Position numbers and translations under genes: made by a program. From Gammaproteobacteria bacterium (GTDB lineage: Bacteria; Pseudomonadota; Gammaproteobacteria; UBA4575): 64,000 nucleotides of DNA. The stretch lies in assembly GCA_965221955.1 (NCBI GenBank), contig CBDCTA010000022.1:320001-384000 (forward strand). The letters run 5' to 3'. The notes under the pieces were generated by a model. The model made no database searches. It saw nothing but the letters and a program-made list of their open reading frames with translations, and was not told the DNA's origin. Shown here piece after piece: positions 49 to 17,282 of this stretch; the stretch's first letter is position 1, and every line of letters begins with the position of its first letter.

Positions 49-78
49 AATGACCGCTATTGGCCGAAAACGGACATT
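49..78. repeat. 30-bp imperfect palindrome, site A (putative recombination site)
   Basis: AATGACCGCTA-TTGGCCGA-AAACGGACATT; 28/30 identical to the reverse complement of 16984-17013. Confidence 0.85.
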
Positions 79-115
79 CAAATATGTTAATAAAAAATTG
101 AAAAAGAGTAATCAG

Positions 116-724
116 ATGGCTAGATCAATTCAAAGGTTTTTCATATTAACTGCATCAATACTTACTGTTTATTTTCTTTATTTACCTATAATTCAAGTTG
201 TACAAGCAGATGTTGGTGCAGAGCTTCGTAAAAAAGGGGAACAGTGTAGGAGTTGGGTCGAGGCAGGAGACCTCATGCGTCATCAAGCCAGTAGATGTTT
301 AGCTGCGTGCGAAAGATATGGCCATGCAGTACAAAAGCATCCAGATATGTTATCAGATGCAGGTGTTCAGGGCTGTAAAGATATTTTTTTAAGAACGAAG
401 AACAAAGTTCTTGGAACGAAATCTAAAACATCCTCTTCAGAAATAACAAAGTCCACACTATCTTCAATGCCCGATGTTGAAGGAATCTATATGCAAGCTA
501 TGCAAGGAAAACTTCGAGTACAAGTAGAAGGACGTGACGACTGGGATACAATTTGCAATGGATTTATAAGAATCAAAGACCGAAAAGGTGAATATGCTCG
601 CAAACTAAAAGGTCGTGATCGTGTGCGTCTTATCGGCATTACCTACAATCCTGACGAGCCCAGTGGGCGGCCGCGTGGCATATGTTCAGCGGAACGCATT
701 GAAATACTTGGACAGAGTCAGTAG
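116..724 (+). CDS. orphan secreted/membrane-anchored Cys-containing protein bracketed by sites A and B
   Basis: ORF 50..724, but the ATG at 50 lies inside site A, so ATG 116 (MARSIQRFFILTASILTVYFL...VQA, signal-like) is preferred; no family recognised. Confidence 0.65.
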   Translation: MARSIQRFFILTASILTVYFLYLPIIQVVQADVGAELRKKGEQCRSWVEAGDLMRHQASRCLAACERYGHAVQKHPDMLSDAGVQGCKDIFLRTKNKVLGTKSKTSSSEITKSTLSSMPDVEGIYMQAMQGKLRVQVEGRDDWDTICNGFIRIKDRKGEYARKLKGRDRVRLIGITYNPDEPSGRPRGICSAERIEILGQSQ

Positions 725-742
725 TTATTCATGACAGATTTC

Positions 743-772
743 AATGTCTGCTTTTGGCCGAAAGCGGATACT
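743..772. repeat. 30-bp imperfect palindrome, site B
   Basis: AATGTCTGCTT-TTGGCCGA-AAGCGGATACT; same 8-bp core and orientation as site A; overlaps the stop codon of the DUF4197 gene. Confidence 0.8.
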
Positions 773-1502
773 ATTTGCTAAATACCTTTTTCAATAAATC
801 TGTAGTTCTTGCAACAGGGTCAGTGCGGATTTTAGCTTCTTCTATAGCCAAGTAATGAAAAATCCCATCCATTCCTTTTTCCACCACGTAACTGCTCAAG
901 TCTGATTTTACATCGGGCACTAATGGAAATTTTTTGTATTGCCCAATTGCGTTGTCATAACTTTTAATCGCACCAGCTTCCGCTAAGCTGTCATTCACTA
1001 TTGGGGTAAATTCTTTTACTAAGTCAGGCGTCATTTTAGATTGAAAGTAACGTGTTGCGGCATCATTTTCTCCAGCTAGAATGTTGCGTGCATCGTCTAA
1101 TGTCATCGCTTGAATAGCATTAATAAATAATTCTTTGGCTTTCGGTGTAGCGATTTCAGCCGCTCTGTTCAGTCTGGTTTCTAAATCATCCAGCATGCCG
1201 CTCATGCCCACTTTATCTAGAGTAGATTGCACTTTTTGCAAGCTGTTTGGTAAAGGGATATGGATATTGGGGTCCGCATTGAATCCGTCTGTAGCCCCTA
1301 GCTGATTGATGACTAGATCTGAACCAACTTGTAGGGCCTCTTTTAAACCAGAGGCGATTTCACCATCTGTAAGAGAACTTGCAGTGGAGGAAGTAATTCC
1401 AGAATCTTCTAAAAATTCTTTGGCTTTATCAAACCAACCTGCATGTAATGAACTTGCAAGTAAGAATATAAAAAACGTAATAGTTATAAACTTTAATTTC
1501 AT
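771..1502 (-). CDS. DUF4197 family secreted protein
   Basis: Signal peptide; GLKEAL, LNRAAE, AAT.YF and IRTDPVARTTDLLKKVF motifs. Confidence 0.85.
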   Translation of the reverse strand: MKLKFITITFFIFLLASSLHAGWFDKAKEFLEDSGITSSTASSLTDGEIASGLKEALQVGSDLVINQLGATDGFNADPNIHIPLPNSLQKVQSTLDKVGMSGMLDDLETRLNRAAEIATPKAKELFINAIQAMTLDDARNILAGENDAATRYFQSKMTPDLVKEFTPIVNDSLAEAGAIKSYDNAIGQYKKFPLVPDVKSDLSSYVVEKGMDGIFHYLAIEEAKIRTDPVARTTDLLKKVFSK

Positions 1503-1523
1503 GTATTCCTCCCAAATAAATGC

Positions 1524-2912
1524 TTATTTTTTATTTTGATTCTCTGTCGCTAGATTCGTTCCAAATAGAAGACCGCTTTTACGCCATAAATAAATCGCTA
1601 ACAAAATTGCAGGCACACCTAGCAAACCAGCATAAATGAAAAAGTGGATATAACCATATCCGTCGACAATTTTGCCTGAAAAGCCGCCAATGAATTTGGC
1701 TGGAAGTAGCATTAATGAACTAAACAAAGCATATTGAGTAGCAGTGTACGCACGATTCGTAAGACTGGATAAATACGCGATGAAAGCAGAGCCTGCGATA
1801 CCTCCACTTAAATTGTCCGCAGTAATCACCAAAGCAAGTAAAACAATTTCAGGTCCTTGAGTGGCTAACCAGGCAAATATTAAATTAGTTATAACAACCA
1901 GAATAGCGGAGACAATCAGCATACGCATTACGCCATAACGCATGACGAATACGCCACCTAGTAGTGCGCCAATGATAGTTACAATTACGCCAAACGTTTT
2001 AGACACTAACCCAATTTGTGTTTCAGTGTAGCCCATGTCTGCATAAAAAGGGCCTGACATCACGCCCATTGTGATATCACTAATTCGAAACAATCCGATA
2101 AACAATAAAATTAAAATCGCAGCAGCACCATTACGTGAGAAGAAATCAACAAACGGGCAGATAACCGCGCCGATTATCCATGCAATGAATTTACGAATGC
2201 CGTTAGGTAAATGAGAAGAGCCTTCTAAAAACTGTATAACACGTTTTTCTTGTTGCCAGGTTTGTTGAGAAACGTGTCTGGTAGGTTCTGCAATCAGTAA
2301 AGTGGTAACCATACCAATTAACATTGCACAACCCATTACGAAATAAGCGGTACTCCATGAATAACTACCGGCAATTAAAAATGCACCGCCCCCAGCTAAA
2401 ATTAAACCGAGTCGATAACCAAGCTGATAAGTACCTGCCATTGCGCCTTGTAGATCCACATCGACAGCTTCAATACGCCATGCATCAATACTGATGTCTT
2501 GTGTGGCAGAGGAAAATGCGACGAGTAATGCTGCCAAAACTAATATCGGAAGTTGTGAACTGGGGCTATTGCTCGCCATCATCCATAGCCCCACTAACAC
2601 ACCAATTTGTGCCAGCAACATCCAACTGCGTCGTTGTCCTAGCCAGTTTGTTAATAAAGGAAGCTGTAGGCGATCAACTAAAGGTGCCCAAATAAATTTA
2701 AAGCCATAAAGAATAGCAACCCAAGAAATGTAGCCAATTGTAGTTCGATCAATGCCTTCTTTTCGCAACCAAAAAGATAAGGTGCCAAATACTAAGGATA
2801 ATGGAAGGCCGGCGGAGAAACCAAGAAACAACATGGCAAACACACGCGGATGCAAATAAACACGAAAAGATTGCAACCAAGAGTGGTTTTCAGATGTTTC
2901 TAGTTCATTCAC
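1524..2912 (-). CDS. ampG: AmpG family muropeptide MFS permease
   Basis: LGFSAGLP, KFIWAPLVD, GQRRSW, SATQDISIDAWRIE and ATQYALFSSL motifs; GTG start overlaps the xth stop. Confidence 0.92.
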   Translation of the reverse strand: MNELETSENHSWLQSFRVYLHPRVFAMLFLGFSAGLPLSLVFGTLSFWLRKEGIDRTTIGYISWVAILYGFKFIWAPLVDRLQLPLLTNWLGQRRSWMLLAQIGVLVGLWMMASNSPSSQLPILVLAALLVAFSSATQDISIDAWRIEAVDVDLQGAMAGTYQLGYRLGLILAGGGAFLIAGSYSWSTAYFVMGCAMLIGMVTTLLIAEPTRHVSQQTWQQEKRVIQFLEGSSHLPNGIRKFIAWIIGAVICPFVDFFSRNGAAAILILLFIGLFRISDITMGVMSGPFYADMGYTETQIGLVSKTFGVIVTIIGALLGGVFVMRYGVMRMLIVSAILVVITNLIFAWLATQGPEIVLLALVITADNLSGGIAGSAFIAYLSSLTNRAYTATQYALFSSLMLLPAKFIGGFSGKIVDGYGYIHFFIYAGLLGVPAILLAIYLWRKSGLLFGTNLATENQNKK

Positions 2913-16839: not shown

Positions 16840-16937
16840 AGCCAGATAGTAGCAAAAGTTGTTCTAGATTACTGAATTGAAAGCTTAACGGGGCAATATT
16901 GAGAATGGGTTGTGAGCATAGGGATATGCGAATAAGA

Positions 16938-16959
16938 GTAGCAACAGGGATGTTGCTAC
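16938..16959. repeat. perfect GTAG-footed hairpin (REP-like)
   Basis: GTAGCAACA-GGGA-TGTTGCTAC, no U tail. Confidence 0.45.
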
Positions 16960-16983
16960 AGAATAAAGTAAGGTGATTTTAAT

Positions 16984-17013
16984 AATGTCTGCTTTCGGCC
17001 AATAGCGGTCATT
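16984..17013. repeat. 30-bp imperfect palindrome, site C
   Basis: AATGTCTGCTTTCGGCCAATAGCGGTCATT; its reverse complement matches site A at 28/30. Confidence 0.85.
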
Positions 17014-17041
17014 CGCCACCATACTTACGAATCAATGATTC

Positions 17042-17236
17042 TTAATCTATATTAAAAACTTGCAAAGGCTTTGCCTTATCGTCCTTTGAGCTTTCCATTT
17101 CATATAGCCAAGGAGGTTTGTCTTTTATATAAGTAAGATATGGATATCTTCTTATTACCTCATAAGGATCATTGGCATTTATATAAAGCCAAAGACCTCC
17201 CATTCCATAGTCATGACAAAATAAATATTTTTGCAT
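17042..17236 (-). CDS. small hypothetical protein (DYGMGGLW motif) between sites C and D; possibly truncated
   Basis: 64-aa ORF; the frame continues 10 codons past TAA to a TGA inside site C. Confidence 0.6.
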   Translation of the reverse strand: MQKYLFCHDYGMGGLWLYINANDPYEVIRRYPYLTYIKDKPPWLYEMESSKDDKAKPLQVFNID

Positions 17237-17251
17237 TTATCTTAAATGTAT

Positions 17252-17282
17252 AATGTCCGGCTTTGGATCGTTAGCGGACATT
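17252..17282. repeat. 31-bp imperfect palindrome, site D
   Basis: AATGTCCGGCT-TTGGATCGT-TAGCGGACATT; same arms as A-C, variant core. Confidence 0.8.

Follow-up and report, generated by a model that had tools for sequence, protein, structure and literature searches.

Of the systems that store single genes as cassettes and shuffle them, only integrons are, to our knowledge, well understood. Their attC sites are 57-141 nt long, fold into imperfect hairpins with extrahelical bases, and carry AAC/GTT boxes. Short inverted-repeat sites also flank exchangeable modules in the dRS3/NIME (Neisseria intergenic mosaic element) arrays of Neisseria and in the pdif (XerC/D) modules of Acinetobacter, with the recombinase acting in trans, while repetitive extragenic palindromes (REPs) are marked by a conserved 5' tetranucleotide. 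The palindromes considered here lie in a 64,000-nt stretch of gammaproteobacterial DNA (the window, C22:320001-384000 of the source genome G000; assembly of 2.69 Mb in 29 contigs, G+C about 38-39%, completeness 96.6%, contamination 4.3%), where they frame small accessory genes. They are probably the boundary sites of a lineage-wide gene-cassette system that is integron-like but integron-independent. Because the sites frame accessory genes in the manner of cassettes, yet no integron integrase accompanies them, an unrecognised way of gene shuffling may be at work.

The four palindromes initially annotated in the window (A-D) stand at the positions and with the sequences first given, and A, B and C have the core TTGGCCGA in common, its orientation following that of their gene. 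A degenerate pattern of A-C has exactly three matches in the 64 kb, against 0.00 expected from 100 dinucleotide-preserving shuffles, and the distances of 15-37 nt between sites and open reading frames (ORFs) are likewise borne out (A end 78 to ORF1 start 116, ORF1 stop 724 to B start 743, C end 17013 to ORF2 end 17042, and ORF2 start 17236 to D start 17252). Site D, which the initial annotation had counted as a fourth copy of one site type, proved to be of a separate type, with another loop (on the gene strand AACGATCCAAA, AACGA(T)CCAAA) that contains a 1-nt insertion. A scan of G000 by Hamming distance (up to 7 differences from either reference copy) identified 179 hairpin sites of 30 nt, 86 of type P1 (as A-C) and 93 of type P2 (as D), flanking small ORFs both alone and in arrays. 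The two types have the arms AATGNCNGCT / AGCNGNCATT in common and are set apart by their 10-nt loops, ATTGGCCGAA in P1 and AACGACCCAA in P2. The description of the copies as pairs hugging an orphan ORF stands in that both window ORFs are framed, but site A also closes the cassette of an upstream ORF (ORF0), and there are about 179 copies genome-wide. The second site type, the ORF0 cassette, and the linkers and X/Y modules described below are all additions to the initial annotation.

Among 90 same-strand neighbour pairs spaced 150-2600 bp apart, 58 are P2-P1, 15 P2-P2, 13 P1-P1 and only 4 P1-P2, and P2-ORF-P1 is therefore taken as the usual unit. ORFs that fill such intervals typically start 10-40 nt past P2 and stop 0-30 nt ahead of P1, and in 64 of the 72 ORF-bearing intervals (ORF of at least 60 aa, in the loci extracted from G000) the ORF lies on the site strand. 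Cassettes are solitary or arrayed, and within arrays are joined either via linkers or directly as P1-ORF-P1. The 30 P1-linker-P2 junctions have linkers of 29 nt (2), 41-43 nt (15) or 52-53 nt (13), with the motif GGTTGGAATCAAT in common. Arrays are found at C5:675-8627 (24 sites, 12 ORF-bearing intervals), C23:10824-23304 (23 sites, 16 ORF-bearing intervals), C26:69641-75806 (11 sites), C29:132349-136418 (9 sites), and C14:4191-8404 and C26:10392-12758 (7 sites each). The encoded proteins are diverse and mostly small, the Pfam matches among 74 of them including GNAT (3), bacterial globin (2), M23 peptidase (2), single instances of DUF1428, OsmC, flavodoxin-like and Rieske proteins, and also hydrolases; no recombinase is present in the 25 Pfam families listed for these 74 proteins.

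Hairpin-bounded units turn over as wholes: they have been gained, lost, exchanged for others or moved, and the breakpoints lie at the hairpins or within them. The ORF2 locus, which sits between two genes syntenic across the genus, provides a first example. Its X module is also found in the relatives G007 and G010: G007 contains X and one intact hairpin, cassette-free, and G010 contains X, a hairpin, an unrelated ~470-bp cassette and a second hairpin. G006 has a degenerate X only, and G001, G002 and G004 have none of X, hairpin and cassette. In G000, the ORF2 unit is arranged on the minus strand as hairpin remnant (17414-17391), Y leader (17390-17283), D, ORF2, C and inverted X (16983-16912). 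The G007-type hairpin is split here, its first 7 nt opening site C and its remainder lying beyond the Y leader: the remnant 17391..17414 together with the outer 7 nt of site C equals the single intact hairpin of G007 at the same position, and homology with the empty G007 allele starts again at the 5' end of the Y leader, position 17390. On the gene strand, the junction falls between ...AAAGC and RGACATT.

The second example is a 1293-bp island between two convergent conserved genes, in the order Y leader (C22:319480), P2 (319584), ORF0, P1 (A), ORF1, P1 (B). The ORF0 cassette, closed by site A, begins 416 nt ahead of the window at P2, C22:319584. Homology to relatives breaks off precisely where the island starts, at the 5' end of Y, and where it stops, at the 3' end of B. 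At this position, G002 and G010 have 9 and 14 nt between the two stop codons and no island, and G006 and G008 have a gap of about 12 and 17 bp (from match coordinates). G007 and G004 contain a solitary hairpin with an X module, oriented the other way, G014 contains just a Y module, and G003 and G011 have about 1.0 and 2.4 kb of other DNA. A search of about 5.8 billion proteins found 7 homologues of ORF1, all unnamed, and ORF1 matched no Pfam family; a homologue is present in G001 at an unrelated locus.

Further cases come from within G000. C14:1-19227 and C23:1-27587 (L014, L013) are versions of one locus beside xerD, 99-99.5% identical with flanks at 99.5%, and since this near-identical locus contains different arrays, the assembly must contain two strain variants. 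A 1059-bp unit flanked by two P1 sites in C14 corresponds in C23 to one hybrid P1, which switches from one of the C14 sites to the other within positions 5-11; the rest of the two arrays differs as well, by 1.5 vs 11 kb of unique cassettes. The same cassette also occurs in different contexts. C5:756-1534 and C26:69643-70422 are 86% identical, with the BLAST match ending inside P2 and P1, while C5:3077-3669 and C17:16509-17104 are 78% identical, the C5 copy arrayed between linkers and the C17 copy solitary between X and Y modules. In the latter pair, similarity stops at the outer edge of P1, with only scattered common motifs upstream of P2. No target-site duplication was found at the three insertion sites inspected. 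As the initial annotation had expected, the sites enclose small genes of patchy distribution and stand in arrays, and empty single-site alleles exist in close relatives, the G007 allele at the ORF2 locus being an example. The sites also mark the exact limits of presence/absence differences between relatives and between strain variants.

Table 1. Features of the window and its upstream edge (window positions, except where a C22 contig position is given)
Feature	Position	Strand	Description
ORF0 cassette, upstream part	C22:319480-319613		Y leader + P2 (C22:319584), just before the window
Site A	49..78	+	P1-type hairpin; 3' site of upstream ORF0 cassette
ORF1	116..724	+	202 aa; cassette gene between A and B
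Site B	743..772	+	P1-type hairpin; right edge of 1293-bp island
X module	16912..16983	+	GTGAGC...; two small hairpins with NGGA loops; abuts site C
Site C	16984..17013	-	P1-type hairpin; 3' site of ORF2 cassette
ORF2	17042..17236	-	64 aa; cassette gene
Site D	17252..17282	-	P2-type hairpin, 31 nt (1-nt insertion); 5' site of ORF2 cassette
Y leader of ORF2 cassette	17283..17390	-	Divergent X/Y module copy
Target-hairpin remnant	17391..17414	-	5' arm + P2-type loop

Many cassettes are preceded by the X/Y module, a conserved structured leader of about 70-125 nt that starts with GTGAGC, forms two small hairpins with NGGA loops, and lies upstream of P2, or inverted and abutting P1. In G000, nhmmer detects 70 X/Y matches (E<=1), 43 of them near-full, and many cassettes or arrays are bracketed by two inward-pointing modules; examples of these copies are L151:1552-1612 and L149:1306-1366. 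The stems are maintained across 25 copies, with 82% of cells paired, 8 of the 13 pairs changed on both sides, and a covariation of 0.339 vs 0.175 in shuffled alignments, a value reached by 0 of 500 shuffles. In 12-13 copies, the module is directly preceded on its 5' side by a hairpin that lacks its 3' arm, the junction reading ...CGACCCAAAGT^GTGAG in 8 and ...CGGCCAATTA^GTGAG in 4-5; this is the same junction position as at the ORF2 locus of G000. The GGA-loop hairpins resemble what we take to be CsrA-type binding sites, G000 contains one csrA gene, and by this analogy X/Y looks like a CsrA-type binding leader or a small RNA. The X element may resemble a terminal repeat of IS5 type; it had no match in E. 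coli genomes. The modules are restricted to the source bacterial family. A further repeat, 'Z', comprising several short hairpins with many GGA motifs, is inserted in hairpin loops or X modules (G000 C22:41478, C22:168426, C17:40471 and C6:670, and within the G010 X copy at L133).

As promoters, the linkers perform poorly, with 20 promoter-like sites in the C5 array vs 29 expected and 1 of 11 linkers passing, and such a function would be speculative. Site orientation agrees with GC skew in 27 clusters and disagrees in 13, which is not beyond what an ordinary gene-strand bias would produce. A search of Rfam returned no match to the window, the arrays or the X/Y region.

The junctions also bear on how such units might move. 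The initial annotation had proposed double-stranded tyrosine-recombinase sites with 11-8-11 architecture, a proposal that would accord less well with the P2 x P1 recombinants, in which every loop is found joined to its own 5' arm and the junction appears to lie ~7 nt from the hairpin 3' end. Because the centres of P1 and P2 differ, a full double-strand exchange of the loxP/dif type is unlikely, and we infer that single-strand exchange on a folded hairpin is the better fit. In the proposed scheme, the point of exchange would be 3' of the loop, some 7 nt short of the hairpin's 3' end, and each loop would therefore stay with its 5' arm after P1 x P2 recombination. A P1-bearing cassette entering a P2-type hairpin would then give P2-ORF-P1, and repeated insertion at the same P2 would give P2-ORF-P1-ORF-P1, as in the first island of the window. 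One strand of folded single-stranded DNA would be exchanged and the product finished by replication, as for integron attC sites and in CTX-phage integration, and the enzyme, neither IntI nor a Y1 HUH transposase, would act in trans.

Searches for such an enzyme covered the window, the source genome and its relatives. The window encodes no recombinase, as originally noted. In G000, the best score against the integron integrase profile (IntI, TIGR02249) is 83 bits vs a cut-off of 265. The 96.6% complete assembly has 0 matches to the Y1 HUH transposase (PF01797) and 0 to the IS110-type DEDD transposase (PF01548), and contains no TnpB, reverse transcriptase or DDE_Tnp_1 (other transposase families were not searched). 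Y1 HUH matches are also lacking (0) in the complete genomes G010, G014 and G019, and among relatives occur only in G001 and G015. The tyrosine recombinases of G000 are XerD (two near-identical copies, on C14 and C23), XerC and one arm-type (island-type) integrase. The complete genome G010, with 24 exact P1 cores and 30 exact P2 cores, contains only XerD, XerC and one 411-aa integrase. The co-occurrence of the sites with a specific tyrosine recombinase or HUH/REP-associated tyrosine transposase (RAYT) gene, envisaged earlier, was not found. Clustering of ORFs of at least 100 aa near 80 hairpin loci of public genomes revealed no recurrent enzyme. G000 also contains one large serine recombinase gene, at C26:86441.

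A 379-aa tyrosine recombinase, Rec379, from a family of about 375-380 aa, was considered as a dedicated recombinase and rejected. It is encoded beside hairpin arrays in G019 (L167:4463-5599 and 9699-10832) and G002, and also in L172, L173 and L174, but its position next to tRNA-Leu(UAA) in three genomes suggests an ordinary island integrase. It is limited to the family (7 of 56 family genomes; 0 of 400 genomes other than G000 in a class-wide sample), and in G000 it is reduced to broken fragments with internal stop codons (C4:24820-25062 and C4:43252-43485).

The only close dif-type match in G000, C4:59807-59834, is likely to be the chromosome dimer resolution site. The arms of the P sites do not resemble this candidate, which upholds the earlier statement that they lack XerC/XerD-type arms. 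The P sites are like dRS3/NIME arrays and pdif modules, as these are generally described, in that short inverted repeats flank exchangeable modules and would be used in trans by a recombinase encoded elsewhere. They differ in having arms unlike the host dif candidate and a spacing of 11-8-11 vs 11-6-11, in bounding single-gene cassettes that form long arrays on the chromosome, and in belonging to a genome that has no IS110-type gene.

Among the closest known systems are integrons, with which the present one has in common small, mostly single-gene, mostly co-oriented accessory cassettes in arrays, a hairpin-forming site bounding each cassette, array content that varies among close relatives, and an inferred crossover a few nt from the 3' end of the site. 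A possible explanation in these terms is that the arrays are clusters of attC sites lacking a nearby integron integrase (CALIN), with the 103-113-nt P1-linker-P2 junction as an unusual attC and the IntI that acts on it encoded elsewhere or in another member of the community. Besides the integron-like cassette content and co-orientation, the junction has a length in the attC range and folds, in 4 of 6 single-strand folds, into one long imperfect hairpin with bulges and an internal loop, although self-folding of each 30-mer is about equal to the junction fold (15.3 vs 15.9 Watson-Crick pairs). The P1 5' arm and P2 3' arm form inverted terminal repeats of the junction, with a mean of 8.8 Watson-Crick pairs per 10 positions. 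One relative, G015, has both IntI and hairpins, and in a Polaromonas metagenome-assembled genome (MAG) a P1-like hairpin adjoins an IntI fragment.

This explanation is nevertheless very improbable. All of the 11 junctions read have the ends AATGNCNGCT and AGCNGNCATT, which lack complementary AAC/GTT boxes, the only AAC being in the P2 loop without a GTT partner; the sites are accordingly not canonical attC, as the initial annotation had it. Many cassettes are bounded by single 30-nt hairpins, too short for attC. Among 24 same-family relatives, IntI scores above the cut-off only in G013 and G015, the other 22 having no match at E<=1e-30; the complete genomes G001, G010, G014 and G019 contain hairpins but no IntI, and G013, the one genus member without hairpins, is IntI-positive. 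In G015, the IntI neighbourhood (L125:1-1500, upstream) contains ordinary attC-like repeats by eye and no P site within 1.5 kb, and its sequence suggests that a classical integron and the P-hairpin system coexist there without mixing. These profile scores and relatives show that the integron integrase is not involved in the turnover of the units, in agreement with their original designation as non-integron. Other differences are in architecture. P sites are near-perfect 30-nt hairpins of two types with conserved loops, whereas attC sites are 57-141 nt, defined by structure only apart from their AAC/GTT boxes; here a site lies on both sides of each gene, the cassettes are spread over dozens of loci and not collected at a single attI platform, and many carry their own structured leader.

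The sites extend well beyond the source genome. An exact P1 core and an exact P2 core are each present in 19 of the 41 genomes searched, namely G000, 13 of the 14 other genus members, 4 further genera of the family and 1 genome of another family; a fifth genus has a few copies. The 20-nt P1 core is present in more than 100 public-genome stretches among the matches listed, with about 4 expected by chance by our estimate, and the hosts among these matches include Ralstonia, Comamonas, Pseudomonas, Herbaspirillum, Polaromonas and Bacteroidota MAGs. In distant taxa, the outer arm varies with compensation (AATGTC/GACATT, AACGTC/GACGTT, AACGGC/GCCGTT), and the 3' arm is often missing, with conservation ending right after the loop and AGCRG.

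This pattern is informative about another alternative, in which the palindromes are operators of a dimeric DNA-binding regulator, or a silencer, that acts on horizontally acquired genes, and have no role in recombination. Such a function would suit 30-bp inverted repeats with arms conserved in the genus, with P2 located 10-40 nt upstream of start codons and P1 just past stop codons. It is, however, highly unlikely, since across distant taxa conservation is stronger in the loop or centre than in the outer arms, and the compensating arm changes suggest a strand that folds on itself instead of an operator in duplex form. In addition, gene-content breakpoints map to the sites, and the sites at 3' ends would be left unexplained.

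Some individual occurrences are of interest for the genomic setting of the hairpins. P1-like cores lie at, or within tens of nt of, a tRNA in L037:1-282 (a Polynucleobacter MAG), L029 (hairpin 1892-1911) and L064 (hairpin 4624-4643); L064 contains a full tRNA-Lys (4675-4750), whereas those of L037 and L029 are partial tRNAs seen by eye and not called by ARAGORN. These cores suggest that the hairpins are often at the ends of integrated islands. A search of plasmids found a single 30-nt P1-like hairpin match (L145:6001-6030, Stutzerimonas stutzeri plasmid p1_PM101005), in unannotated DNA about 70 nt downstream of umuC, and no plasmid match to the P1-linker-P2 junction.

The main rival to the reading of the palindromes as cassette boundary sites is that they are extragenic palindromes like REPs or miniature inverted-repeat transposable elements (MITEs), possibly functioning as mRNA 5'/3' stem-loops, that spread between genes and are shuffled by general recombination: cassette turnover would be a by-product of homologous recombination, replication slippage or foreign DNA uptake between these repeats, involving no dedicated site-specific reaction. 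As with REPs, their bacterial interspersed mosaic elements (BIMEs) and associated RAYTs, and MITEs, the sites are lineage-specific palindromes that lie between genes in high copy number, many of them paired or in mosaics whose spacers are conserved, and the hairpins also form arrays. The P1-linker-P2 junction constitutes a 103-113-bp unit with perfect terminal inverted repeats and 80-93% identity across the genus, modules of X plus hairpin occur alone, in either orientation, at a site without a pre-existing hairpin, and the hybrid P1 of the C14/C23 locus is what would be expected from unequal crossing-over of direct repeats.

Several results weigh against the boundary-site reading, some of them in favour of this rival. 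No enzyme was found, the only tyrosine recombinases of G000 and G010 being XerC, XerD and one island-type integrase, and general recombination between repeats of about 30-100 bp could therefore give many of the same patterns. The P arms are unlike the sole dif-like site of G000 (3 mismatches to a pattern based on the general dif consensus). In a Bacteroidota MAG, the P1-like hairpin simply trails ordinary genes. The two ends of one cassette do not covary in a partner-specific way (5.74 observed vs 5.74 shuffled), and pairing of sites by covariation, whether across cassette ends or across the junction, was rejected as no better than with shuffled partners. The recurrent half-hairpin/X junctions may all be copies of one old event. 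Finally, contigs of four public runs yielded no usable circle or deletion junctions, the sides of the joints being <30 nt and the loose ends deriving from other repeat copies.

Even so, a pure repeat origin appears unlikely. It does not account for the conserved loops, nor for the strict polarity of P2 before and P1 after the gene (58 P2-P1 vs 4 P1-P2 same-strand pairs), the tight packing of arrays with 64 of 72 ORFs co-oriented, the 12-13 half-hairpin/X junctions at the same hairpin position, or the P1/P2 recombinants that retain each loop with its 5' arm. As intrinsic terminators the hairpins are no candidates, with 4 found vs 3.6 expected and no T-tract. Unlike REP/RAYT systems, moreover, G000 has no RAYT/Y1 gene, and the P sites frame genes with fixed 5'/3' polarity and mark gene-content breakpoints; their conserved part is the loop, vs the 5' tetranucleotide of REPs.

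A search of literature listings and abstract openings yielded no description of these sequences or of such a system. It is a tentative possibility that the boundary sites represent a second, integron-independent invention of the cassette principle, in which short hairpins with sequence-specific loops are cut and rejoined on single-stranded DNA by an enzyme outside the known integrases and HUH transposases, or by a recruited host enzyme, and units with regulatory leaders of their own are sent to dozens of chromosomal sites. If so, the presence of the loop core in scattered Beta- and Gammaproteobacteria and in Bacteroidota would mean that the machinery is far wider than the source family. The question can be put to a direct test, since the sites and empty alleles are now defined, as is the junction that a circle should have. 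A multi-locus cassette system that is free of IntI and uses other sites would widen the known routes by which accessory gene pools are assembled, would add a new kind of site to structure-specific recombination, and would account for some of the accessory genes of a gammaproteobacterial family that is uncultured and has small genomes.

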